Shown here piece after piece: positions 46,511 to 59,494 of a stretch of DNA of 64,000 nucleotides. Under the pieces are notes generated by a model, which did no database searches, was not told where the DNA came from, and saw nothing but the letters and a program-made list of their open reading frames with translations. The translations under genes were made by a program, and so were the position numbers. The stretch comes from Parcubacteria group bacterium (lineage in GTDB: Bacteria; Patescibacteriota; Minisyncoccia; Phycocordibacterales; CSBR16-119), in assembly GCA_943356745.1 (NCBI GenBank), contig CALRFT010000001.1:11946-75945 (forward strand), given 5' to 3'. Position 1 is the stretch's first letter. Every line of letters starts with the position of its first letter.

Positions 46511-47269
46511 CTATAATAAATTTTGTATCTTTTCGTATTCTATAAACTTAAAGACTTGAAACGCCGATTCTTGAAATAGTGACCATTCATTAATAACAAG
46601 AAGAATTCCGATAATAAACATAAGTACGCCTCCCGTGATTGATAGAGCTTTGAAAAGCCGTGTATGTCTTTGGAAAAAGTTTTGTGAACGATGGTAGAGA
46701 AATGCTGAAAATATAAAAGGAATAGAAAACCCAAGTGAAAATACAAAAAGTAGAATTGCTCCTTGTAACGCTGTCCCCAGAGCTCCAGCAAGAACAAGTA
46801 CCGTTCCAAGTATTGGTCCAATACATGGAGCCCAACCGAGAGCAAAAATAGCACCAACTAAAGCAGATCCTTTAGGAGTTCCGACTTGAAGCCATGACGG
46901 ATTTTTAATTCGAGCAGTTATTTGGAACCAAGATTCTGGTATAACTTTGAGTATTGCTAAGGAGAAAAAAATAATCAGAGCTCCACTTATTTGAAGAAGA
47001 ATCGGGCGAAATGTCCCCCAAAAAGATCCAAATAATCCTAAAGTTAATCCGAGAATAATAAATACTGAAGAAAAACCAAGAACAAAGAATACACTATTTT
47101 TTCTTATTTGAGATTCCGCAAAAGATTTTGTTTCTAAATTTGTAATATCTTTATTTGAAACCCCAGAAATAAAAGCAAGATACCCTGGAACCATTGGTAA
47201 AGTACAAGGCGCCAAAAACATAAGAAGTCCTGATATGAAAGCTGGAGCAAGAAGACCAAGCACTAACAT
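46511..47269 (-). CDS. ccdA: cytochrome c-type biogenesis/thiol-disulfide transporter CcdA (DsbD core)
   Basis: LAPCTLPMVPGY and GWAPCIGPILG Cys motifs; six TM helices. Confidence 0.8.
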   Translation of the reverse strand: MLVLGLLAPAFISGLLMFLAPCTLPMVPGYLAFISGVSNKDITNLETKSFAESQIRKNSVFFVLGFSSVFIILGLTLGLFGSFWGTFRPILLQISGALIIFFSLAILKVIPESWFQITARIKNPSWLQVGTPKGSALVGAIFALGWAPCIGPILGTVLVLAGALGTALQGAILLFVFSLGFSIPFIFSAFLYHRSQNFFQRHTRLFKALSITGGVLMFIIGILLVINEWSLFQESAFQVFKFIEYEKIQNLL

Positions 47270-47271
47270 AT

Positions 47272-47706
47272 TTAACGTGTTATAGAAATAAGTCGATTAG
47301 TTCCATCTGTTTCTTCTCCCCATGGACTACATACTGTAATTCTCTTTTCCTGACCAGAAAAGGAAACTTTATAATCTTGTCCATTTGGATCAACTGGAAT
47401 TGTCTCAAAATAATCAGGAACTAACAGTGTTTCAAAATCTCTTACAGTAAGCGAAGATTCTGAGCAAGCAATATCAGTTTCGTACAAAGAAATCAAAGTA
47501 CTGTACTCTGTAGAACTAATAGAAAGCTTCCATAAATTATCAGCGATTTCAGAAACATGTTGAAATCGAAGAGCATTTCGAGTCTCCCGCTCCTGATCTT
47601 CCTTTCCATTGCCGGAAATAAAAATAAAGACTACCCCAACAATAAAAAGAAGGATAGCGAGAATCTCTACAAAACCTAGTGAACTTTTAGTATTTTCTGA
47701 TGACAT
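47272..47706 (-). CDS. membrane-anchored hypothetical protein with pilin-like N-terminus
   Basis: KSSLGFVEILAILLFIVGVVFIF loosely resembles a prepilin G-F-x-x-E leader, followed by a small Cys-containing domain. Confidence 0.45.
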   Translation of the reverse strand: MSSENTKSSLGFVEILAILLFIVGVVFIFISGNGKEDQERETRNALRFQHVSEIADNLWKLSISSTEYSTLISLYETDIACSESSLTVRDFETLLVPDYFETIPVDPNGQDYKVSFSGQEKRITVCSPWGEETDGTNRLISITR

Positions 47707-49238: not shown

Positions 49239-49574
49239 TTATTCCCAAGACATCTGCCAATCTTTCATTTGATTGATTTCAGTTGTTTGTGCCTTAATAA
49301 TTGCAGTTGCCAGATCTTTGATTTCTTGTCTTTCTGAACTTTCAAGAGCAAGCTCTGCCATCTCAATAGCTCCCTCATGATGAACAATCATTTGTTCAAG
49401 AAAAGCTTGGTCAAAAGCATTCCCTGTCTTTCCCACGAGCTCGGCATTCATATCCATCATCATCTGATCCATAGACATTGAATGCATATCATGTGAATTA
49501 TTTCCTTTTATAGAAAACCCGATTAACCCTCCAATAATAAGTGCGAATAGTGGTATTACAATATTTTTATTCAT
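49239..49574 (-). CDS. DUF305-family secreted protein
   Basis: FDQAFLEQMIVHHEGAIEMA (HHxGAIxM) hallmark; N-terminal signal/TM. Confidence 0.75.
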   Translation of the reverse strand: MNKNIVIPLFALIIGGLIGFSIKGNNSHDMHSMSMDQMMMDMNAELVGKTGNAFDQAFLEQMIVHHEGAIEMAELALESSERQEIKDLATAIIKAQTTEINQMKDWQMSWE

Positions 49575-49588
49575 ATGTTTTTTAAAAA

Positions 49589-51154
49589 TTAAAATTTCAT
49601 AGTGTGTTTTGAAACACGAGAAGGTGATGTGATAGGTTTTACAGCCTTATCTTTTTCACCTTCTTCTTTATGGTGTTTCAAAAATCGAGCAGTTCTCTTA
49701 AGGTCGTTTGTAAAGTATAAAATAATTTTAACAAAGGAAGCAATTCCAACCACAACAAGAATTGCAATACCAAGGTAACTTACGAAACTAATTGCAAATC
49801 CAAGTAATTGAGATGGTTCAACTTTAAACGCAACTGGGTTACTTTGAAGCTTTGTATCTTCATTATAAGCTTGAACAAATGCTGTATGATATCCAAGATC
49901 AAGATGAGATCCTATAGCAAAACTAAACCTACCATCTCTATCAACAATTCCTTCTTCTGTATATACAACATTTCCCTTTCTTGTAAGTGTGAGAAGTAGC
50001 TTATTATCTGGTGTTCCGGAACCTTGAATAGTAATGATTTTTCCTTGTTCAATTTCTTCTGGATATTCTGTAATAATTGGTTTTGTAATGAGGGCTTCCC
50101 CAAAAGAAACAATCACTTCACGAATAGTTTGATTTCCCGCTTTATCAAAAGCAATTATCTCAATATTTTGTTCGCCACTATAGATAGGAGGAAGTTCGTA
50201 GTTTATTACCTCTTGCTCGTCAATTCTAATTATTTCGCCTCCACCAATCTTGATTTCATAATGTGAAAATCCTGAATCTATATCATCTGTTGTAAAAGTT
50301 AGTTTTGGAGAAGTATCTTCATTGTTTACTGAGACATCAAAATCTTGCGGTGGTTTTGTGTCAATATTTAATTTAAATCTTCCAACAGAACTCCATCCTG
50401 CGGTAGTTCTTGTTTGTACTGAGAAGTAATATGTACCCTCACCAAGATCTTCTATTGTTTTTGTCGAAACTGGAGGAATGTAACTTACTGTTGGTGTACT
50501 ATTTTGATTTCTACCAATCAAAAGCTTTGTTTCAAGAGCTCCTTGCGGTAACTCCCAATTAAATATAGCTGTTGTTTTGTTGTACCATCCATTTTGATCT
50601 GGATGTGTTTCTGAGCTTATGACAGGGGCATTATTATTTACAGGTTTTGGAGTTTCTGGTTTTGGTTCAACAAAAGCTTCAGTAATCGTGAAATTACCAC
50701 TACTCAAAGTACTTGCAATATTTGTACCAAGACCATCATTAGCAAGAATAGACCCTGAACTAAATTTAACCTGAGCAGTTCCAGGCGATTTTGGTCTAAA
50801 AGTTACAGAAAGAAGTTTACCCCCATTTCCAGAATATCCTGGATTCAACACAACTCCCTCAAAGTTAATCGTTCCGGCCGAATTTGAGAAACTTGGCTCT
50901 TGAACCCACAAAGAAAATATTGAACCAGTTTTTGAAATAGAAACTACTTCAAGATTATTCGTCGGAAATGTAATAACACCAGAAGATGCGTTCATGATTT
51001 GACCATCTGTGTTTGCAAGAAAATTAACAGTAAAATTTTTCCCTACCTGATACTGCCCACTCGAAGGAGACATTCCCAAAGACGCCGAGTGTGCAGTGGG
51101 CGCACTACTCAACATAAGAATCATTATTGAAAAAATAGAAAATATTTTTTTCAT
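49589..51154 (-). CDS. surface protein with cohesin-like N-terminal beta-domain, FN3/Ig-like middle and C-terminal TM anchor
   Basis: Signal peptide (AHSAS) followed by ...GVITFPTNNLEVVSI...SLWV...GTINFEG...VTF...GTAQVKF; C-terminal TM helix (AISFVSYLGIAILVVVGIASFV) and a basic tail. Confidence 0.55.
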   Translation of the reverse strand: MKKIFSIFSIMILMLSSAPTAHSASLGMSPSSGQYQVGKNFTVNFLANTDGQIMNASSGVITFPTNNLEVVSISKTGSIFSLWVQEPSFSNSAGTINFEGVVLNPGYSGNGGKLLSVTFRPKSPGTAQVKFSSGSILANDGLGTNIASTLSSGNFTITEAFVEPKPETPKPVNNNAPVISSETHPDQNGWYNKTTAIFNWELPQGALETKLLIGRNQNSTPTVSYIPPVSTKTIEDLGEGTYYFSVQTRTTAGWSSVGRFKLNIDTKPPQDFDVSVNNEDTSPKLTFTTDDIDSGFSHYEIKIGGGEIIRIDEQEVINYELPPIYSGEQNIEIIAFDKAGNQTIREVIVSFGEALITKPIITEYPEEIEQGKIITIQGSGTPDNKLLLTLTRKGNVVYTEEGIVDRDGRFSFAIGSHLDLGYHTAFVQAYNEDTKLQSNPVAFKVEPSQLLGFAISFVSYLGIAILVVVGIASFVKIILYFTNDLKRTARFLKHHKEEGEKDKAVKPITSPSRVSKHTMKF

Positions 51155-52023
51155 TGATGTTTTTTACGGTACACAACAACACCCGAAACTATTACAACAA
51201 TAAGTATACTAAATATTAGGATAAAATTCTCATCAAATATTTTTTCCTGTGGATGAACAACTGAAATTCTCTCATTCCCAGCAACGTCAACCGCTTTTAC
51301 AAAAATTGTTTTAAATAATTTTTGATCTTTTAAAACATAAGGACTTTGAACTTCTTGAAATGAACCAAAATATCCTTCTTTTACCTCATAACGAAGTATA
51401 CCAACTCCCTTATCTTGAGTTGCAAAAACTAAAACATTTCGACCATCATAGAGATTTTCATCTTGAGTAATGATTGGAGTAAAGTCTTCTGGTTTTTCTG
51501 TGTCTTTAGGGACAATATACTCTTGAGAAAAATTACCATCTTCTGATATGTAAATCTTTTTGTCTATAGAATTGATTTTATTTTCGGTTCCAATTCCGTC
51601 ATGAAGTAATACCGAACCACCTTCTGTAGAAATTCTTAATTCATCATCAGGATTTTGACCTCGTATTTCTAAAGAGAAAAGAAACAACGCACTTCCCTGT
51701 ATTCCCCCTGGGGTAATTCCTGAAAAGTAAATTGAATTTCCTTGAACTTCCGGTTTATCAACCCAGAAAAGTATTGAAGAGTTTCCTGTATTAATAGAAA
51801 TTTTTGGATCTTCGATTCCTTCTACCTGAATAGTTCCCGAAATTGTGTTAACAATATCTTCTGAGTCAAGCAAAACATCCACAACAACGGTGTCGTTTGA
51901 ACCATAAAGAGCATGGTTTGTTTCAAAAAAGAAACCCGCAGCAAAAACACTCAGTGGGATATTTAAGAATGAATACAAGAATATAAAAATGTAAATTATT
52001 TTTTTCATAATTAACCTGTCCAA
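51151..52023 (-). CDS. surface protein with cohesin-like domain and C-terminal TM anchor (paralog of the N-terminal domain of the 49589-51154 protein)
   Basis: Signal peptide, then TISGTIQVEGIEDPKISINTGNSSILFWV...IYFSGI...LFLFSLEIRG..., alignable to the N-terminal domain of the 49589-51154 protein; C-terminal TM helix. Its stop overlaps the next gene's start. Confidence 0.5.
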   Translation of the reverse strand: MDRLIMKKIIYIFIFLYSFLNIPLSVFAAGFFFETNHALYGSNDTVVVDVLLDSEDIVNTISGTIQVEGIEDPKISINTGNSSILFWVDKPEVQGNSIYFSGITPGGIQGSALFLFSLEIRGQNPDDELRISTEGGSVLLHDGIGTENKINSIDKKIYISEDGNFSQEYIVPKDTEKPEDFTPIITQDENLYDGRNVLVFATQDKGVGILRYEVKEGYFGSFQEVQSPYVLKDQKLFKTIFVKAVDVAGNERISVVHPQEKIFDENFILIFSILIVVIVSGVVVYRKKHQ

Positions 52024-53039
52024 TGATAAGCCATAATACTGAAATCGATAAGATCAATTTTGTTATCTCCATTAAGTTTTTGAGCTTCCACAAGAGAAAA
52101 TGATTGACTCAGTGTTCGTTTATACCAAAAAGCTGCAATTGAAAAATCAACAAGATTCACACGAAGGTCATTATTAAGATCTGCCTTTCTTGACGAATTT
52201 TGTAAATCAGAAGGGTTAAGGAAAACATTTGCGTCACCCACAATAAAGCCTAGTGCATTTCCAAAAGGACTTATTTCATTTCCAATTTGTGATTTAGACT
52301 TTGCCGAGTGAGAACCATAAGCAAGAAGTGCACTGTTAAAATTAAGTAGATACGCCCCATCCTGATCTGCTTCTTCCGTAACAAAATATGATGGCTCTGA
52401 GTTAACATTAATTGTAACCTCAGAGTTTGGTGTTGTTTGACCAAAAATACTAATAGTATCACCTCGTCTCACCTGGGACTTATCGAGCCCAATTGTTGGA
52501 GCAATAAAAATTCCACCGATACTTGTAGTAACTCCTGAACTAATGAAAATAGGAAAAGTAAATGGACTTGAAATAATTCCATCATCATCTTCACCATATG
52601 CAGAGAAAATATAATTTCCAGTTGAGAGACCACTTACTGTCACACTAAATTTACTATCTGGACCAGCAATTGTAGTTACAATGAGTTGTCCATCTTTCAA
52701 TATACTTACCCTACTAAGCGGATAGGCTCTTCCAGTAAGAACAACATTGGTTTCAGGAATGGAAGAACCTCCTCCACCGCCAGATGTATTTGAGCAAGAA
52801 GATGTATTAAAAGTACAAGAAACAGAACAAGATAGAGTTCCACTTGAAAAACCAAGGGAAACACAACTTGCCCCACCAAGTGAAGAACCGTCACATTGCT
52901 CTCCAATTCCAATAACCCCATCTCCACAACCTCCCACTGTTGCTGATATTTCAACAGTGATAGCCTGTAGATTATTTGGGGCTATAAGATAGAAAATTAT
53001 AAGAAATAAAGAAGTAGTTTTTGTAATAAAACCATACAT
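52011..53039 (-). CDS. secreted Cys-rich protein with C-terminal dockerin-type tandem repeat
   Basis: Signal peptide; CGDGVIGIGEQCDGSS Cys-rich repeat; the C-terminus has two segments, DLNNDLRVNLVDFSI and KLNGDNKIDLIDFSI, matching the dockerin pattern DxNxDxxVNxxD. Confidence 0.6.
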   Translation of the reverse strand: MYGFITKTTSLFLIIFYLIAPNNLQAITVEISATVGGCGDGVIGIGEQCDGSSLGGASCVSLGFSSGTLSCSVSCTFNTSSCSNTSGGGGGSSIPETNVVLTGRAYPLSRVSILKDGQLIVTTIAGPDSKFSVTVSGLSTGNYIFSAYGEDDDGIISSPFTFPIFISSGVTTSIGGIFIAPTIGLDKSQVRRGDTISIFGQTTPNSEVTINVNSEPSYFVTEEADQDGAYLLNFNSALLAYGSHSAKSKSQIGNEISPFGNALGFIVGDANVFLNPSDLQNSSRKADLNNDLRVNLVDFSIAAFWYKRTLSQSFSLVEAQKLNGDNKIDLIDFSIMAYHWTG

Positions 53040-53041
53040 GA

Positions 53042-54217
53042 CTAAATTCTTCTCTTAGGTTTTTGTAATGGTTTTTGAGTGGTTGGTTTTGAAATATCTT
53101 TAATAGAATGAGATGAGATGGTTGATGACACAGTTTGTTTTTTTTCTTGTTTCTCAATTGTTTTTTGAGAACTATTTTGTTGATTGTATATTCCAGCCTG
53201 TGACAAAACCCAGGCATTATATCTCTTGAGTATCATTTTAAATCCTTTTCCAAAAAGGAAAAATCCTAGCAATAAGATACTAAGTGCTTGCCATGGAATA
53301 ACAAAAAAATGATATGAGTCTTTTGCGTTTTGTGCTGATTCACCCCAAGTAATATCAAGTTTTGCTGTATACCAACCAAATTTAAAATCTTTCAATTGAA
53401 CTTTTACCGATTCGAAAAAACCAAGCTTTACAGGATTACCAGTATCATCAAGCTGTCTCTCATCTCCTAAATACACTTCGTATCGACGTGCACTACCAGG
53501 CAACACACTTCCTTCATTTTTATTAGCATTTACTTCCTCTGTTTTAAATCTAAAAGTATTTAAAAGAGAAACTGTTCCTCGAGGAACAACCCTGTCTCCC
53601 CCTGTGTTACTGAGCCTGTATTCCACGACAATAGGAGGGGTTGAAACAACACGAAGATTATTTTTAGTTGTAAAAGACACAAGTCCTCCACCTTCTTCAA
53701 TTTCACCATTTACCCGAAGCAAAATAAGAACTCCTACTTTCCCACCAACAGAAACCTGTCCACCTGACCCAGTTGGTGGTTGTGTACCGAAAAACACAGC
53801 GGCAAAATAACCTCCTGGTTTAGCAGAACTTGGGATTGCAATAGAAAAAGGAACCTTAACTTCTTCTGAAGAGGAAACAAGAACTGAATCAGTAGATCTC
53901 AGCCATGTAGCAAGCCCATCTTTAGCACCAATAAAATATGGCGCACCTGAGTCTCCTCTCGGTTCAAAATTTTCAAAAGAAACGTAGTAATTTTTTTGAG
54001 ATGACTCTCCAGCCGATTCATCAAAGAGTGCTATTTCTCCAGTGATTGTTTGGCCTGGATCACCTGATATTTCAAGACGAGCAGGAGAAACAGTAAGAGC
54101 AAACGCAAAAAAAGGAGCACTTATTGAGGCCAAAACAAAACCGAGTAGAATTATAAGTCTCCTTTTCATAGAAATAGTATATATTAAAATTAGAATTTTA
54201 GAAGTTTGCTGAAGCAA
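53042..54217 (-). CDS. surface beta-rich protein with C-terminal TM anchor and K/R/Q-rich cytoplasmic tail
   Basis: Signal peptide (APFFAFA), a body of about 280 aa, a TM helix (ALSILLLGFFLFG) and a long basic tail. The architecture resembles DUF916/DUF3324 CscA-type proteins (speculative). Confidence 0.5.
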   Translation of the reverse strand: MLQQTSKILILIYTISMKRRLIILLGFVLASISAPFFAFALTVSPARLEISGDPGQTITGEIALFDESAGESSQKNYYVSFENFEPRGDSGAPYFIGAKDGLATWLRSTDSVLVSSSEEVKVPFSIAIPSSAKPGGYFAAVFFGTQPPTGSGGQVSVGGKVGVLILLRVNGEIEEGGGLVSFTTKNNLRVVSTPPIVVEYRLSNTGGDRVVPRGTVSLLNTFRFKTEEVNANKNEGSVLPGSARRYEVYLGDERQLDDTGNPVKLGFFESVKVQLKDFKFGWYTAKLDITWGESAQNAKDSYHFFVIPWQALSILLLGFFLFGKGFKMILKRYNAWVLSQAGIYNQQNSSQKTIEKQEKKQTVSSTISSHSIKDISKPTTQKPLQKPKRRI

Positions 54218-55304
54218 GATATGTCAAAGTAGAGGAGTAGCTTCCAGCTTCTGTATTTGCACTAATGTTTGCGATATATCTTATTGAGTATGTTGTATCT
54301 GCGGTTGCGCCGGTAGCTGCTGCGAATTCATCTGGAAACGCAGCTGAATCAAAAGCAAATCCAGTAGATGCATATGGCGCAGATACTGTTCCTATTCCTC
54401 CTGAAGCAGTTGCTCTAATTCCAAACTGCTCTGTTCCAACAGAAGATGCTGTATTAGTAGAGCCAATAGCATCAATAGTATCTCCACCTGAAGTAAGTGT
54501 GGTTCCATTTAAAGAAAGAGTATATCCGTTTGAAGCATTTGTTCCAACGGTAAGTGTATGCGCTTCGACCTCAGAAGATCCTCCCGATGTATCACCTATT
54601 GCATATCTTGCAGCAGACGAAGAGAGACTTCCAAATCCAATAGTACTATCAGAAATTGTGAAAGTAATAGATTGAGCAACTGTTGCTGACACGGACACTT
54701 GGTCATCAGAAAGAATTGTTACTGAGATATTTCCAGAATCAGAAGCTCCAGCAGTAACAGCAATGGAATAAGTTGTCGCTGAAGATGGGTTTATATATTG
54801 AGAGTTCGTAGATCCACCTGTCGCATTTTCTCCTATCTCGATACACACCTCTGCTCCAACAGGAACTGTAGCAGACGCACCTCCTGATGTAAGAGTGAGG
54901 AGTCGATTTTCTGTAGTAGAAAACACAGCATTCCATTGAGAAGCTGTTGCACCTGACGCAACGAGTGTTTGCGCTGTTCCATCACAAATACCATCCGGGA
55001 CTGTATCAATCAAGAAATCAACATCACTAAAATCCAATGCACCCTGAGGGTCGTTTGATCCATCAAAATCTGATGGGAATGTGAGTGTTATTGTTTGCCC
55101 CGAAGCAACACCTGTTGGTGTTGTAAATTCGATTTCGTGATCGGATGCTTGGTTAACAGCGAGACGAGACATTATATCTGCAGCGTCAGTAATTGATGCA
55201 GCTTGCGCTACATAGAATGGAAAAAATGCCGTAAAGACTAAAATCGAGGAAGTAAGTACAGCGATTCCTTTTTGAAAGAATGAACTAAAAAATGCGTGCT
55301 TCAT
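54198..55304 (-). CDS. secreted Ser/Thr/Gly-rich surface protein sharing a C-terminal ~170-aa domain with the 1041-aa protein
   Basis: Signal peptide (YVAQA/AS). Its C-terminal domain (TISDSTIGFGSLSSSAARYA...TEQFGIRA...AFDSAAFPDE...AGSYSSTLTYLASANF) is homologous to 55402-55950. Confidence 0.55.
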   Translation of the reverse strand: MKHAFFSSFFQKGIAVLTSSILVFTAFFPFYVAQAASITDAADIMSRLAVNQASDHEIEFTTPTGVASGQTITLTFPSDFDGSNDPQGALDFSDVDFLIDTVPDGICDGTAQTLVASGATASQWNAVFSTTENRLLTLTSGGASATVPVGAEVCIEIGENATGGSTNSQYINPSSATTYSIAVTAGASDSGNISVTILSDDQVSVSATVAQSITFTISDSTIGFGSLSSSAARYAIGDTSGGSSEVEAHTLTVGTNASNGYTLSLNGTTLTSGGDTIDAIGSTNTASSVGTEQFGIRATASGGIGTVSAPYASTGFAFDSAAFPDEFAAATGATADTTYSIRYIANISANTEAGSYSSTLTYLASANF

Positions 55305-55345
55305 AAATAAAAGTTATTAAATAATACCTGTTTATTATACCAAAC

Positions 55346-55380
55346 AAAAAACAATCTTTCTGGATTGAAAGATTGTTTTA
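55346..55380 (-). terminator. intra-cluster terminator between the 1041-aa and 368-aa genes
   Basis: acaatctttc-tggatt-gaaagattgt followed by a T-run on the minus strand; a TATAAT follows 31 nt before the next ATG. Confidence 0.55.
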
Positions 55381-55401
55381 TTGTGGATATCTTATTCATT
55401 A

Positions 55402-58400
55402 TTAATAGCTCGCTGTTACAGTATATGTCAAAATTCCGTTATAAACCCCCGCTTCAGTTAAACTTGTAATGTTACTGAGATATCGTACTCCATACTCTGT
55501 TGGAGTATTATCACCACTTCCAGTCGCGATTTGATCAGGAAACGCGGCTGCATCAAAAGCAAATTCAGAAGCTTGATTATATGGAACAGAAACAGTACCA
55601 GTACCCGAATTCACAACAGCGCGAATTCCAAATTGCTCCGTACCGGGAGAAGAAGCGGCAGATGTTCCGCCTATTGAATTAATAGTTGCTCCACTGCAAG
55701 CATTACACGTGAGTGTTGTTCCATTAACAGTCAAAATATATCCTCCACTTGCATTTGTTGAAGCAGTTACAGTATGAGCGTCAGAAGAATCAGTTCCAGA
55801 CCCAAGAGTATCCCCTGTCGCATATCGAGCGCTACTTGGCGAAAGAGAACCAAACCCAATCGAGTTATCTGAAATGGTCATTGATATTTCTTGAACACCT
55901 CCAGCGGCTGCTGTGGTAATTTCAGGATAGTTTGTATAGGTATCAAATAAAGTACCACTAGTAGCCCCAACCACTCTAAAACAAAATGTTGTTTCAGGAT
56001 TTGCTCCATTATCACGTAAAGCAAAATCCCATTTGCCACTTTGACTTTGATTGGTGATGGAAGCTTGGTTGTTTGTGAATGGATTAGACTCAACATAACT
56101 TTGATTTACAATCGTTCGTCCACCGTCTGTCGGATCATTAGCATTTGGCGTAAGAGCTGCATCATCTGCCGGTGTCGGGTTATCCTGAAATGCAATAGAA
56201 GTCACACTAGTCACGTCAGTATACACAGCAGGTGTTCCACCGCTTGGAGATGCGCAAGTACCAGTTCCCTTGTCTACATACTGGAGTTTGAAATTTTTTC
56301 CATCAACAAAAAGATTTCCAAAATCATTTCGTATATTCATTCGAAGACGAAATACCTGATTGGTACTCGAAAGCGTTGCAGGAGTATCCTGAGCCGCAAG
56401 AACAGACCCCACATCTTGAGTATCTACATTTTCAAAAAATCTATACGTAGCCTGAGTATAACGCTTTGCATTCCATGCAGCAAAATCATAGGTGAAAGTA
56501 TTTTCATTTGAATCTACTCCAGTACCAAGACTAAATCCGTTTGAGATAAGATTTGTAATTTGATTTGTAATCGAAGGAAGAGCGAGAAATTGCGATGTAC
56601 TATCCCCTGTTTGAACAGAGGTACGAAGTAGAGCTCCCCGAGCTGTTCCACCCGTACGTTTTTTTATCCAGACAAGATCTGGCTGAAAACCAAGTGAGGT
56701 AATGTTTCTCACAGTACCGTTTCCTGTATAGGTTCCCACGCAAAAGGTTCCATCTTCAGTACAACTATTTCCCCCAAACATGAAATATGGAATTCGGATT
56801 GCGTTAACATTAGCAGCATTTGCACTTCCTATTTGAAAACCATCAGAGTTAAATGCTTGTATAAGATTCGAAGTAGAAGCCCCAGCATTAAATAGATTAG
56901 AAATATCTTCAACCATAGAACTTGTACGCCATGGAGAGAAGTTATTTGATAATGATTTGATTGTCACAAAATCTGGCTGAAATGGAAGCCTGTCTATATT
57001 TCTATTATCTTGAACATTTCCAGAATAAGCTCCTATTAAAAAATCAGAAGCAGTACCAACACCATCTGATTGAGATGCGTTACCAAACGCGGTCCAGTAA
57101 TAGGTATCTCCGGCAGTGTTTACTGTTGGACTTGTTCCTACTGAAAAACTATTGGTACCGAGAGCGGTAACACCCCCAGTAAAGTTAGAAAGTGCGAGAG
57201 CGAAATATCCGGTTGAATTTTGTCCTATACCTCGATGAGCCCAGACCGCCGCCTGGTCTGTGGCTTGATCTCTATGCTTTACAATAACTAGATCCGGATT
57301 AAAAGGAAGCCCTGCCACAGAAAAAGCAGCACCTGTTCCAGTATATGAACCGTTTATCATCCGAAACCTTCCACTGGTATCAAACGCCGGCTCAGGTGCC
57401 CCTCCAAAAACACCATAATAAGTAGTAACACCATTTACATTAACACCACTAGTTGAACTACCTACTTGAAACCCTCCTGTGCTAAAAAGTCTTTGGATAA
57501 TATTTGCCGACCCGGCAGCGTCAGTTGAAGGCATTGTAAAGTCACCATAAGATGCACGAAAATTTAAAAATCCATTTGTGGCTCCGGCTCCTTTTGCAAC
57601 CACGAAATCAGGCTGAAAAGTAAGTGCTGTATCGTCTGAAGAATCTATATTATTGTTATCGAGTCCATTTCCCACAAAAGAACCTGCCTTAAATGCTCCA
57701 GGGGTATTTTTAAATGCAAAATAATGATAGGTGTTTGCCGCGGTATTTACGGCGGCATTACTACCGATAGAAAATCCATTTGAAAGAATACTGTCTATTG
57801 CTCCCGATGCGATATCTGCCCCACCCCACTGACTTGAAACCGTACCACTATGGACACTTGTTTTAAACACCCCAATACTCCCACCCGCGCGCTTCACAGA
57901 TACAAAGTCTGGCTGGAAGCCGACAGAGGTAATATTTTGAGAAGTACCATTCCCAGTATAAGACCCAACACAAAAAGTCCCAGAAGAGTTACAATCTGAT
58001 CCACGAAAAGCAACCCAATAATATATTGTAGTGTTAGCGTTTACATCGCTGTCATTTCCGACTGTAAATCCATCACTATTGAAAGACTGAATGTGGTTGG
58101 TGGTGAGGTTTCCATCTGTCTCCGCCCAAGCCAAAGAAAGCTCCCCAGTCATAGTAGAAGTCTTGACCACCATCCCCTCACTACCCCCTGCGTCAAAATC
58201 TTTTACGATCACCATTTGAGGCTGAAAACCAACCTTGGTGATTTGTCGATTATCGACACCATTTCCCACATAGTATCCTGTTTGTATTTGAAAGGTAGCA
58301 GCATTTGCACGTTCCACCTCAGGCTGTAAAAGATGTCCAATGTGTCTATCCACCAGATTACCTTTTTCTTGGGTTGCAATATACAAAAGGTCAACAACAT

Positions 58401-58527
58401 TTCTATCTTCAATTTTCTGAGTTACGAAGTCTATCATATCTTGAGACGGGAAACCAGAAAAAAACATCGCAAACGCAAGTGTAAAAACCGCACAATATCG
58501 ATATATTTTTTTAATAATTTGCAACAT
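55402..58527 (-). CDS. large secreted repeat protein (1041 aa) with six GNG...GFQPD repeats and a conserved C-terminal domain
   Basis: Signal peptide. Repeats fit G(S/T)YxGNGxxxNITxxGFQPD(F/L)VxxK alternating with SNGFSxGS...TY(H/Y)YFAF. The C-terminal roughly 170 aa are homologous to the 368-aa neighbour. Confidence 0.6.
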   Translation of the reverse strand: MLQIIKKIYRYCAVFTLAFAMFFSGFPSQDMIDFVTQKIEDRNVVDLLYIATQEKGNLVDRHIGHLLQPEVERANAATFQIQTGYYVGNGVDNRQITKVGFQPQMVIVKDFDAGGSEGMVVKTSTMTGELSLAWAETDGNLTTNHIQSFNSDGFTVGNDSDVNANTTIYYWVAFRGSDCNSSGTFCVGSYTGNGTSQNITSVGFQPDFVSVKRAGGSIGVFKTSVHSGTVSSQWGGADIASGAIDSILSNGFSIGSNAAVNTAANTYHYFAFKNTPGAFKAGSFVGNGLDNNNIDSSDDTALTFQPDFVVAKGAGATNGFLNFRASYGDFTMPSTDAAGSANIIQRLFSTGGFQVGSSTSGVNVNGVTTYYGVFGGAPEPAFDTSGRFRMINGSYTGTGAAFSVAGLPFNPDLVIVKHRDQATDQAAVWAHRGIGQNSTGYFALALSNFTGGVTALGTNSFSVGTSPTVNTAGDTYYWTAFGNASQSDGVGTASDFLIGAYSGNVQDNRNIDRLPFQPDFVTIKSLSNNFSPWRTSSMVEDISNLFNAGASTSNLIQAFNSDGFQIGSANAANVNAIRIPYFMFGGNSCTEDGTFCVGTYTGNGTVRNITSLGFQPDLVWIKKRTGGTARGALLRTSVQTGDSTSQFLALPSITNQITNLISNGFSLGTGVDSNENTFTYDFAAWNAKRYTQATYRFFENVDTQDVGSVLAAQDTPATLSSTNQVFRLRMNIRNDFGNLFVDGKNFKLQYVDKGTGTCASPSGGTPAVYTDVTSVTSIAFQDNPTPADDAALTPNANDPTDGGRTIVNQSYVESNPFTNNQASITNQSQSGKWDFALRDNGANPETTFCFRVVGATSGTLFDTYTNYPEITTAAAGGVQEISMTISDNSIGFGSLSPSSARYATGDTLGSGTDSSDAHTVTASTNASGGYILTVNGTTLTCNACSGATINSIGGTSAASSPGTEQFGIRAVVNSGTGTVSVPYNQASEFAFDAAAFPDQIATGSGDNTPTEYGVRYLSNITSLTEAGVYNGILTYTVTASY

Positions 58528-59494
58528 ATTGATAAATAACCGACGAAATTTCTTTCATAATCATCTCCGCATCTTGGCGAGTTTTTTCTGATGGGACATC
58601 TATCATGAGAGTAATAAGATAAGGTCTATTTGGCACATAGACAATACCTGAATCAAGATAGATTGTATCTAAATCATTGATACCTATTTTATGTGCAAAG
58701 GTCACACCCTCTGGTATGCCGGCATCCAAAAAAGTATTAAAGTAGGTACTTGATAGTATTTCTAAAAGTGTTGTAGAGTGTTGTCTTGAGAGATAACTTG
58801 AGGTATACAAAGCACGAAAAATTCGAGTATATTCTCGCGCTGTAACTCTGTATTGAGAATCATAAAAATCACTAAACCCTAAAGCGTTGAAAAGTTCTTC
58901 ATATCCATCTTCGGACAGATTTCGAAGAAATATTCTGTGTGCGGTGTCATCTGAATTCACAAGAAGCTCAAATAAAAGCTCTTCTATAGTAAGTCGTGTA
59001 CCTACCGGCTCTTGATACAATTCTCCAAAATCACTATTTCTATCTTCCATAAAAAGTACTAGTTCGTTGGAAAGCTTCCATTCCCCATCTTGAATTTTTT
59101 TCATCACCACAAATGCTGTCGGCATTTTTGAAAGAGATGCTGGGAAAAATCGCTTTTCTTCATTTATAGAAATACTTGCCCCTGTGTTAAGATACTCAAA
59201 ATATAACCCTATCTCAAAACCCTGCGCTTCATATTCTCCAACACGGGAAACCAAATCACGCCGAATAGGTTCTATCGTTGTGAAAAAATGCTCCTGATCG
59301 ACAAAGCTTCGAGAAGCTTCGATGAGAGGAAAAGGGTTGATATAATCTTCGGACTTCCTTTCTCTTAGAAATAAAAATCCCCATACAATATTTGTACACA
59401 CAAAAACAATCAAAAATATCAGAGATATTTTTTTTGAATTCCACCAAGGTGTTTTTTTATTATTACTCTTCTCTTTCATATGATTAGTTTTCAA
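58511..59494 (-). CDS. membrane-anchored serine hydrolase, class A beta-lactamase / low-molecular-weight PBP-like
   Basis: SLSK (SxxK), SDDTA (SDN-like) and a KIG (KTG-like) triad with correct spacing; N-terminal TM helix. Confidence 0.6.
   Translation of the reverse strand: MKTNHMKEKSNNKKTPWWNSKKISLIFLIVFVCTNIVWGFLFLRERKSEDYINPFPLIEASRSFVDQEHFFTTIEPIRRDLVSRVGEYEAQGFEIGLYFEYLNTGASISINEEKRFFPASLSKMPTAFVVMKKIQDGEWKLSNELVLFMEDRNSDFGELYQEPVGTRLTIEELLFELLVNSDDTAHRIFLRNLSEDGYEELFNALGFSDFYDSQYRVTAREYTRIFRALYTSSYLSRQHSTTLLEILSSTYFNTFLDAGIPEGVTFAHKIGINDLDTIYLDSGIVYVPNRPYLITLMIDVPSEKTRQDAEMIMKEISSVIYQYVANY

Follow-up and report, generated by a model that had tools for sequence, protein, structure and literature searches.

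Bacteria of the candidate phyla radiation (CPR) account for a large part of bacterial diversity and live on host cells, to which they attach by machinery that is mostly unknown. A cluster of minus-strand genes from one such bacterium raises the question of what cohesin and dockerin modules might be doing on its surface. The cluster lies in a 64,000-nucleotide stretch of DNA from a Parcubacteria group bacterium (assembly GCA_943356745.1, contig CALRFT010000001.1, positions 11,946 to 75,945), which was analysed as a whole and is called the window below; coordinates are those of the window. A first interpretation made from the letters alone, here called the sequence-only reading, had seen a minimal cellulosome-like assembly in 49589-55304. 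Our analysis instead places the cohesin and dockerin genes at the tail of a longer operon, 49589-58527, which starts with two pilins of the Pam type. We consider it about as likely as not that this segment forms a single operon for a surface fibre of the Pam type, which would be assembled by donor-strand exchange in an ultrasmall, Paceibacteria-like CPR bacterium and be tethered at its base by a cohesin-dockerin joint.

Organization of the operon

Six tightly packed genes, named G1 to G6, occupy 49589-58527 on the minus strand, and their products are beta-rich and either secreted or membrane-anchored.

55402..58527, minus strand: G1, candidate tip adhesin of 1041 amino acids (aa), with a signal peptide, about 870 aa of DUF7483 repeats and a Pam-pilin C-domain
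54198..55304, minus strand: G2, candidate shaft pilin of 368 aa, with a signal peptide, an N-terminal beta domain, a linker and a Pam-pilin C-domain (residues 211-368)
53042..54169, minus strand: G3, candidate assembly chaperone (PamC/PamD role) with a WxLIP-like fold, 375 aa from M17, with two Ig domains and a transmembrane (TM) helix (residues 295-314)
52011..53039, minus strand: G4, candidate pilus terminator or adaptor of 342 aa, with a signal peptide, a donor-like N-terminal strand, a six-Cys module, two Ig-like (Big_6) domains and a C-terminal dockerin
51151..52008, minus strand: G5, short membrane stalk of 285 aa from the ATG at 52008, with a signal peptide, a cohesin-like domain, one Ig-like domain, a TM helix (residues 262-280) and a basic tail
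49589..51154, minus strand: G6, long membrane stalk of 521 aa, with a signal peptide, a cohesin domain, an FnIII-like and two Ig-like domains, a TM helix and a basic cytoplasmic tail

The open reading frames (ORFs) of the sequence-only reading were all recovered on the minus strand with the same coordinates. The operon reaches upstream of its range (49589-55304) to 58527; G2 (54198-55304) had been left uncharacterised and G1 (55402-58527) lay outside. Together with a DUF305 gene, G1 to G6 form a series of seven consecutive minus-strand ORFs (49239-58527). Five to seven consecutive signal-peptide genes with overlapping stop and start codons had been described. The first part of this description stands for seven products (7/7, 55402-58527 to 49239-49574), each of which begins with a hydrophobic stretch that could be a signal peptide, as judged from Kyte-Doolittle scores and from N-terminal helices in AlphaFold2 (AF2) models. 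The overlap does not hold in general and is restricted to one pair: the ATGA at the G5/G6 junction (51151/51154) is the sole true overlap in the operon. The G3/G4 (53042/53039) and G4/G5 (52011/52008) junctions have spacers of 2 nt each, the G2/G3 spacer (54198/54169) is 28 nt long and the G1/G2 spacer (55402/55304) is 97 nt long with a hairpin inside.

Two gene starts were revised. The start of 53042-54217 is most likely a longest-ORF artefact, the G3 start being M17 at 54169, which gives 375 aa instead of 391; G3 from M17 is identical to a database protein (P0121), and the same start is used in a 518,649-bp ENA metagenome contig, in which an identical 21 kb of sequence is present. Likewise, the start of 51151-52023 is most likely a longest-ORF artefact, and G5 would start at the ATG at 52008 with 285 aa instead of 290. 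A C-terminal TM helix followed by a basic tail is present in G3, G5 and G6. For the two cohesin-like proteins this had been noticed earlier and is borne out here; the 391-aa ORF of G3 has it as well.

Two Pam-type pilins at the head of the operon

Pam pili were described in 2026 in Candidatus Mycosynbacter amalyticus, which belongs to the Saccharimonadia, and their pilins have an N-domain folded as a beta-sandwich and a truncated Ig-like C-domain, joined by a linker strand which each subunit donates to the next (bioRxiv 10.64898/2026.03.03.709456; PDB entries 25PZ and 25QA). Both G1 and G2 exceed the 55-bit cut-off of the NCBIfam model NF058581 (CPR_Pam_pilin_C, 'Pam pilus system pilin subunit'), with 85.7 bits and an E value of 3.2e-24 for G2 and 66.5 bits for G1, and so do the pilins of related loci. 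The C-domains of the two proteins (residues 879-1041 of G1, coordinates 55405-55893) are 56% identical. The remainder of G1 is occupied by the DUF7483 repeats, which match Pfam at 2.9e-35 in six stretches. A search of the PDB with the single G2 sequence gave no match. The pilins contain no LPXTG motif.

For comparison, a profile of G3 was used to retrieve 80 loci from species-level CPR genomes, whose ORFs were annotated with profiles built for this analysis. A pilin of about 350-370 aa immediately precedes the G3 gene in nearly all of these loci. In such second-position pilins, the 12 residues ahead of the C-domain are conserved and read DDQVSVSATVAQ or close variants of it.

54672..54707, minus strand: candidate donor (linker) strand of G2, residues 200-211, DDQVSVSATVAQ, with V203, V205, A207 and V209 on one face

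In an in-register comparison of 39 loci, V4 and V10 of the linker were found in 39/39 and A8 in 38/39. On the basis of the Pam pilus structures, the linker strand is our candidate for the strand that would be donated to the next subunit. The motif is found in 1/39 of the first-position pilins, and G1 has no donor-strand motif ahead of its C-domain, as expected of a tip subunit. The length of the first pilin varies from 133 to 2095 aa across loci (L005-L084), with unrelated N-terminal regions and a conserved C-domain. This variability is the pattern expected for a fast-evolving tip involved in host recognition, and makes the first gene a candidate host-specificity determinant.

The modelled fold of G3 resembles RbmA, WxLIP and chaperones

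The AF2 model of G3 (predicted local distance difference test score, pLDDT, of 80.5) consists of two beta (Ig-like) domains and a C-terminal helix, with low confidence for residues 136-142. Foldseek searches with this model gave RbmA as the best match (7.9e-11), followed by Enterococcus faecium WxLIP (9i1y and 9i25, free and bound to a long WxL protein; 1.3e-10) and, ranking below both, by the chaperone-usher chaperones CsuC, CfaA, DraB and YadV (1e-8 to 1e-7). A flexible, low-confidence Gly loop is followed by the strand GGQVSVGGKVGVLILLRV (core QVSVGGKV), which is conserved in the family with the strictly conserved pattern GG[QE]V[ST][VI]GGK[IV]GVLxLLRV.

Sequence searches with G3 were mostly negative. 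No significant match to Pfam or NCBIfam was found for G3, its family profile gave no match in the PDB, and NCBIfam searches for models of Pam chaperones or anchors gave none for G3, for G4 or for the variants of G4 that end in a TM helix (see below). PF06030 (WxLIP_PGBD) was the top but marginal Pfam family among the G3 homologues (3/32, E 0.011), the G3 of the window being unmatched.

These matches bear on the suggestion of the sequence-only reading that 53042-54217 has a DUF916/DUF3324-like architecture, which would point to a complex of the WxL/Csc type. Because of the Foldseek matches of the G3 model (9i1y and 9i25, about 1e-10), this alternative is structurally reasonable and has some support. 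No WxL domain was detectable: G1 and G2 gave no match to PF13731 at E <= 1, and their C-termini (...TLTYLASANF and ...ILTYTVTASY) contain no Trp-x-Leu. The locus is thus not a strict Csc/WxL cluster, and that reading was rejected.

A looser version would have G3 act like WxLIP and hold single G1 or G2 molecules by strand insertion, with no filament being formed and with G4 to G6 as a second display layer. It accounts for the match of the G3 model to WxLIP both alone and in the WxL-bound state and for the standing of PF06030, marginal as it is, as the top Pfam family of the G3 homologues. The gene set, in which a small and a large protein, the latter with N-terminal binding domains, accompany a two-Ig TM protein, also mirrors that of WxL clusters (PMC10599100). 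However, G1 and G2 match the model of the Pam pilin C-domain, and Pam filaments have been solved; neither a WxL domain nor a WxL motif is found; and the linker strand is present in subunits of the G2 type and not of the G1 type, as polymerisation predicts. We consider such a complex without a polymer improbable.

G4 combines a dockerin with a pilin-like strand

The sequence-only reading had placed a dockerin at the C-terminus of the 52011-53039 product, with two 15-residue segments (DLNNDLRVNLVDFSI and KLNGDNKIDLIDFSI), and these are found at residues 287-301 and 321-335 of G4.

52014..52187, minus strand: dockerin module, G4 residues 285-342, with two F-hand repeats, DLNNDLRVNLVD and KLNGDNKIDLID, each followed by DFSI[AM]A

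At the family level this assignment is borne out by Pfam Dockerin_1, which matches 31/32 of the aligned G4 homologues (best 7.1e-10). The nine best matches of the G4 family profile in the PDB are all cellulosomal dockerins, led by 2y3n_B at 3.5e-4, and the sole PDB match of the single G4 sequence is a type I dockerin, 5nrm_B. The family comprises 2255 homologues, some of which are named dockerin proteins by UniRef and NCBI. Loop positions 1, 3, 5, 9 and 12, which provide the calcium ligands, are conserved in the first repeat, and positions 3, 5, 9 and 12 in the second. Since the helix start DFSI[AM]A follows both repeats, the module is internally symmetric. G4 thus appears from its sequence to have the hallmarks of a dockerin, a duplicated Ca-binding F-hand segment with a helix after each copy, and at the family level its C-terminus is, on the same grounds, a dockerin.

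The Cys-rich CGDG...EQCDG module that had been noticed in the 342-aa protein is present (residues 38-82). Its six Cys are invariant in the family, and DUF4215 and TIGR02232 matches in homologues are sub-threshold only. The Ig-like domains match Big_6 in Pfam at 2.6e-9. Ahead of the Cys module, at the predicted mature N-terminus, G4 carries a strand which resembles the linker of the pilins, and in the G4 homologues the 12 residues ahead of the Cys module read AITVEISATVPG or close variants.

52935..52961, minus strand: pilin-linker-like strand, G4 residues 27-35, ITVEISATV, at the predicted mature N-terminus, with the motif V-x-[VI]-[ST]-A-x-V

When 1757 non-pilin ORFs were scored with a position-specific scoring matrix (PSSM) built from the pilin linkers alone, N-termini of G4 proteins made up 32 of the top 60 (hypergeometric 2e-29). 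A single G3 was among these 60, and G3 has no pilin-like N-terminal strand. Placed in the register of the pilin linker, the G4 strand of 39 loci has A8 and V10 conserved to the same degree and V4 in 36/39. Positions 6 (V or I) and 7 (S or T) are restricted in the same way in the two families. The resulting pattern, in which hydrophobic residues alternate to form one face and include a single small residue, is what would be expected for a donor strand, and the G4 strand may be one that is inserted in the groove of a pilin. A related motif, [QE]V[STA][VI]x[AG]x[VI], was found 45 times in pilins, 33 times in G3, 6 times in G4 and 2 times in 807 other ORFs.

G5 and G6 are cohesin-bearing membrane stalks

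The N-terminal domain said to be shared by the 521-aa and 290-aa proteins could be confirmed by BLASTP (25% identity, E 1e-9). Comparison of the G5 and G6 family profiles with hhalign gave 100% probability and an E value of 1.1e-39, and G5 is therefore a paralogue of G6. The cohesin-like domain of G5 spans about residues 24-150 (51559-51939). In G6 the cohesin domain (residues 24-158, 50681-51085) is followed by the FnIII-like and two Ig-like domains (179-446) and the TM helix (about 453-481).

The AF2 model of G6 (pLDDT 85.8) has five parts, namely the N-terminal domain (24-158), another three beta domains and, at the end, a long TM helix; the N-terminal domain is modelled with the fold of a cohesin, a nine-stranded jelly-roll beta-sandwich of about 140 residues. 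A cohesin fold being found in the model, the earlier cohesin-like assignment stands. Pfam Cohesin (PF00963) matches 18/30 of the aligned full-length G6 homologues (at about residues 32-143) and 5/40 members of the G5 family. Six G6 homologues and the syntenic G5 orthologue of locus L004 (26.6 bits) score above the Cohesin gathering score of 24.1, in a range of 25.9-31.7 bits. Both families are large, with more than 1200 homologues of G6 in CPR metagenomes and 3195 representative clusters for G5. In PDB searches, the single G5 sequence gave only noise (growth hormone, E about 1), and the full-length G6 profile found Bap-type Ig repeats only and no cohesins.

Cohesin and dockerin modules are what a polysaccharide-degrading complex of the cellulosome type would need, and both are present. 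However, neither a glycoside hydrolase nor a carbohydrate-binding module was found, whether in the operon or in those other proteins of the window that were scanned. In the 21 kb of locus L001, a beta-lactamase-like family and a P-type ATPase are the sole unrelated enzyme-like families recorded, and the single dockerin is on a non-enzymatic Ig-repeat protein, with dockerin matches confined to the G4 position in about 80 loci of up to 21 kb. The cellulosome reading, which we regard as extremely improbable, was rejected because the proteins scanned include neither hydrolases nor carbohydrate-binding modules. The accompanying guess that the proteins serve attachment rather than degradation is reasonable, as the operon contains no glycoside hydrolase.

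Two features of individual G6 homologues were also observed. Two of them (P0077 and P0101) contain bAvd-like and 23S-rRNA-IVP domains (PF22296 and PF05635), typical of the accessory protein of diversity-generating retroelements (DGRs), which hints that some of these surface loci adjoin, or are fused with, DGR components. In longer homologues, the TM helix is followed by a helical tail of about 100 aa in the cytoplasm (profile positions 464-566), which weakly resembles ATP synthase subunit b (E 0.12-0.13); the tail of the window G6 is shorter. An ATP synthase alpha gene (273-1769) lies in the window about 48 kb from the operon, and the Pam preprint puts ATP synthase genes near pam operons.

Dockerin and cohesin genes co-occur across CPR genomes

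In nearly all of the 80 loci the genes follow one order, in which a variable pilin and then a pilin of about 355 aa come before G3, and G3 comes before the dockerin protein, a short and, last, a long cohesin protein. The more specific record titles name the lineages Paceibacterota/Parcubacteria, Kaiser-, Taylor-, Nomura-, Staskawicz-, Magasanik-, Falkow- and Gracilibacteria. A divergent cluster in the metagenome-assembled genome (MAG) GCA_030154545.1, whose G4 homologue is named for Candidatus Microsyncoccus archaeolyticus, has a pilin-like gene of 488 aa and a shorter G3-like gene, followed by the same three genes. Many third-party annotation MAG records with the operon carry the title 'uncultured Candidatus Saccharibacteria' or 'uncultured Gammaproteobacteria', and Bacillota appears in the title of one record and Spirochaetota in that of one protein; such titles are probably placeholder or wrong labels.

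Co-occurrence was examined in the 67 loci that have a G4 homologue and at least 2.5 kb of downstream sequence. Dockerin and cohesin genes are both present in 56/67 and both absent in 10/67, counts that ignore phylogeny. Locus L007 is the single apparent exception, with a duplicated gene that has the dockerin on its second copy. This strict co-occurrence across genomes argues for a pairing of the dockerin with the cohesins. In five loci without a dockerin (L002, L022, L031, L044 and L047), the G4 homologue keeps the N-terminal strand and the Cys module and ends in a TM helix with a basic tail, whereas 0/35 of the complete dockerin-bearing homologues have a C-terminal TM helix. The presence of a TM helix in place of the dockerin suggests that a dockerin plus a cohesin on a TM stalk is interchangeable with a direct membrane anchor, and the simplest reading is that both would do the same job.

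The identities and the co-occurrence of the cohesin and dockerin modules would fit equally well with a separate display module, in which G5 and G6 as membrane scaffoldins show G4, an independent adhesin or ligand-binder. In essence, this is the cellulosome-like attachment complex of the sequence-only reading. The pilins and G3 would then be co-transcribed with G4 but not joined to it, and any fibre would be held by G3 as a PamR-like anchor. In keeping with this, the Cys-rich module and Ig domains of G4 could bind a ligand, and the best fold match of G3, RbmA, is the fold given to the Pam anchor PamR. However, the in-register pilin linker motif at the mature N-terminus of G4 is left unexplained by such a module, and G3, which would have to be the anchor, lacks a pilin-like N-terminal strand (the one G3 among the top 60 PSSM matches). 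Moreover, G4 to G6 come after pilin and G3-like genes in every locus read, the divergent L085 included. We consider the separate module unlikely, though it is the most serious of the alternatives.

A model for assembly and anchoring of the fibre

The proposal of a tethered Pam-type fibre can be set out in six steps. All six products would be exported by Sec, as suggested by their N-terminal hydrophobic segments. The membrane-anchored G3, judging from its fold and motif, would cap the incomplete Ig-like C-domain of the pilins with its strand QVSVGGKV. G1 would start the fibre as tip adhesin, since it has a C-domain groove, no donor strand and a large variable N-terminal region. G2 would then polymerise, each linker strand DDQVSVSATVAQ entering the groove of the preceding subunit, by homology to the PamA/PamB structures. 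G4, with a strand of the pilin type and without a groove, would act as fibre terminator. Finally, the dockerin of G4 would bind the cohesins on the short (G5) and long (G6) Ig-like stalks and so fix the fibre to the cell, a pairing to which the strict co-occurrence and the substitution by a TM helix point. In this model G4 is made up of a donor strand, a spacer and a dockerin, which is the layout of PamR with the dockerin replacing the TM helix. Cohesin-dockerin bonds are mechanically very strong, which would suit an anchor under load. Filament formation, the order of subunits and the cohesin-dockerin binding itself are inferred here, while the identities of the domains, the architecture of the operon and its conservation are observed.

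A broader version may be entertained somewhat more tentatively, at a confidence a little short of even. In it the cohesin-dockerin pair would be the load-bearing joint which fixes a donor-strand-exchange pilus to the cytoplasmic membrane, by way of a terminator subunit that has a donor strand of the pilin type at one end, a dockerin at the other and two cohesin stalks of different length to keep it in place. Pam-type pili would commonly take this form in Paceibacteria and related CPR classes, and Pam pili and the WxL/WxLIP clusters of Firmicutes would be two branches of one monoderm donor-strand system.

Several observations weigh against the tethered-fibre proposal. Those on the modules concern the window proteins themselves: G5 and G6 have no Pfam Cohesin match at E <= 1, the Dockerin_1 score of G4 (20.1 bits) is just under the gathering score of 22.9, and position 1 of its second Ca loop, variable in the family, is a Lys. 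The co-occurrence counts given above ignore phylogeny, and three related loci (L030, L032 and L033) have a G4 homologue of 227-236 aa that lacks both the dockerin and the TM helix, with no cohesin genes following. The model does not account for two cohesin stalks of different length per single dockerin. The sequence searches revealed no link to PamC, PamD or PamR, and RbmA, the best fold match of G3, is the fold that the preprint gives to the anchor PamR and not to the chaperones, so that the roles of G3 and G4 could be assigned differently. With regard to the donor strand, the motifs were defined after inspection of the data, and the G4 N-terminal strand might be the first strand of its own Cys-rich module. 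Furthermore, the pilin linker and the G4 strand showed no locus-specific covariation (39 loci, p = 0.66). Their groove-facing positions do not vary, and the remaining ones do so independently of each other. This result neither supports nor refutes the model.

Comparison with known surface systems

In Pam pili, the chaperones PamC and PamD are PapD-like with a C-terminal TM helix, and PamR, the proposed terminator and anchor of the fibre, is RbmA-like and begins with a strand, which is followed by two FnIII domains and a TM helix; cohesin, dockerin and WxL domain are unmentioned in the preprint (bioRxiv 10.64898/2026.03.03.709456). The present system resembles Pam pili in its CPR lineage, in a predicted two-domain shaft pilin with a conserved linker, in having pilins and a two-Ig protein with a C-terminal TM helix in one operon, and in the layout of G4, whose N-terminal strand and tandem Ig/FnIII domains are arranged as in PamR. 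Neither system has an usher or an outer-membrane component. It differs from Pam pili in having one two-Ig TM protein instead of three (PamC, PamD and PamR) and two additional TM proteins that bear cohesins. The candidate tip is a 1041-aa DUF7483-repeat protein in contrast to the single-domain PamT, and the lineage looks Paceibacteria-like and not like Saccharimonadia or Microgenomatia. G4 has a Cys-rich module and a dockerin and no TM helix; the window G4 is therefore not an anchor of the PamR type.

The WxL/WxLIP (Csc) clusters of Firmicutes are similar in that a two-Ig protein with a C-terminal TM helix stands beside small and large secreted proteins that share a C-terminal domain, and in the presumed mode of binding, the insertion of a strand contributed by the two-Ig protein, which is how WxLIP is believed to engage its partner (PMC10599100). 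The present operon differs in having no detectable WxL domain or motif, a marginal Pfam match to WxLIP and no LPXTG protein. We know of no cohesin or dockerin in WxL clusters.

With chaperone-usher pili (Pap, Fim, Csu and CFA/I), the operon shares the logic of donor-strand complementation and exchange, a fold of G3 which resembles CsuC, CfaA, DraB and YadV, and the proposed succession of a tip adhesin that lacks a donor strand, a shaft subunit that polymerises and a terminator. In contrast to these pili, it has no usher-like gene, no outer membrane is present (CPR cells lack one, to our knowledge), and the chaperone is membrane-anchored. Except in G4, the candidate donor strand is an inter-domain linker and not an N-terminal extension, and anchoring would be by cohesin and dockerin. 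In non-cellulosomal cohesin-dockerin pairs (Clostridium perfringens GH33/GH84, 2vo8 and 2w1n; Archaeoglobus fulgidus, 2xdh) the partner is a hydrolase or toxin, unlike the pilus-operon protein found here, and the cohesins of the present operon are on stalks with a C-terminal TM anchor, with low sequence similarity (13-23% identity).

No link of cohesin or dockerin to CPR pili was found in the searchable literature. The parts are thus of known kinds, and their combination is undescribed as far as that literature shows. A related fibre system is suggested to be widespread in Paceibacteria-like lineages; the component families number hundreds to thousands. If the model is true, it provides a testable answer to how a fibre is anchored without an outer membrane, an usher gene or an LPXTG motif in the pilins, namely by a detachable and mechanically strong cohesin-dockerin joint. 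It would also give a defined role to orphan cohesin and dockerin modules of the non-cellulosomal kind. The group of Candidatus Microsyncoccus archaeolyticus is studied in enrichment cultures and may offer an experimental route to the divergent cluster in GCA_030154545.1.

Non-coding elements and neighbouring genes

One candidate non-coding element was located in the spacer between G1 and G2 by a scan for terminator-like structures.

55348..55379, minus strand: hairpin with a 13-bp stem and a T-rich tail, a consensus match only, between G1 and G2

From its position and sequence, the hairpin may be an attenuator, an RNA-processing element or a stability element, and could set the ratio of G1 to G2 transcripts. 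A promoter scan was uninformative, with fewer sigma-70-like sites than in shuffled sequence.

Directly upstream of G1, a gene on the same strand (58511-59494) encodes a class-A beta-lactamase-like protein (PF13354, E 6.8e-37), and its 3' end overlaps the G1 start. It is preceded, up to about 62648, by genes for several unknown secreted proteins, and an ECF-type (extracytoplasmic function) sigma factor is found in the parent contig (L001, 1002-5659). The region upstream of G1 may therefore be a regulatory or cell-wall-remodelling neighbourhood. On the downstream side, the small DUF305 gene (49239-49574; Pfam E 1.2e-21) follows G6 on the same strand after 14 nt, and its product has an N-terminal hydrophobic segment. 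About 2 kb downstream of the operon are the genes for a membrane protein of the DsbD/CcdA type (46511-47269) and for a small secreted protein (47272-47706). Given the six invariant Cys of G4, a disulfide-handling system nearby may be relevant, or its presence may be a coincidence.

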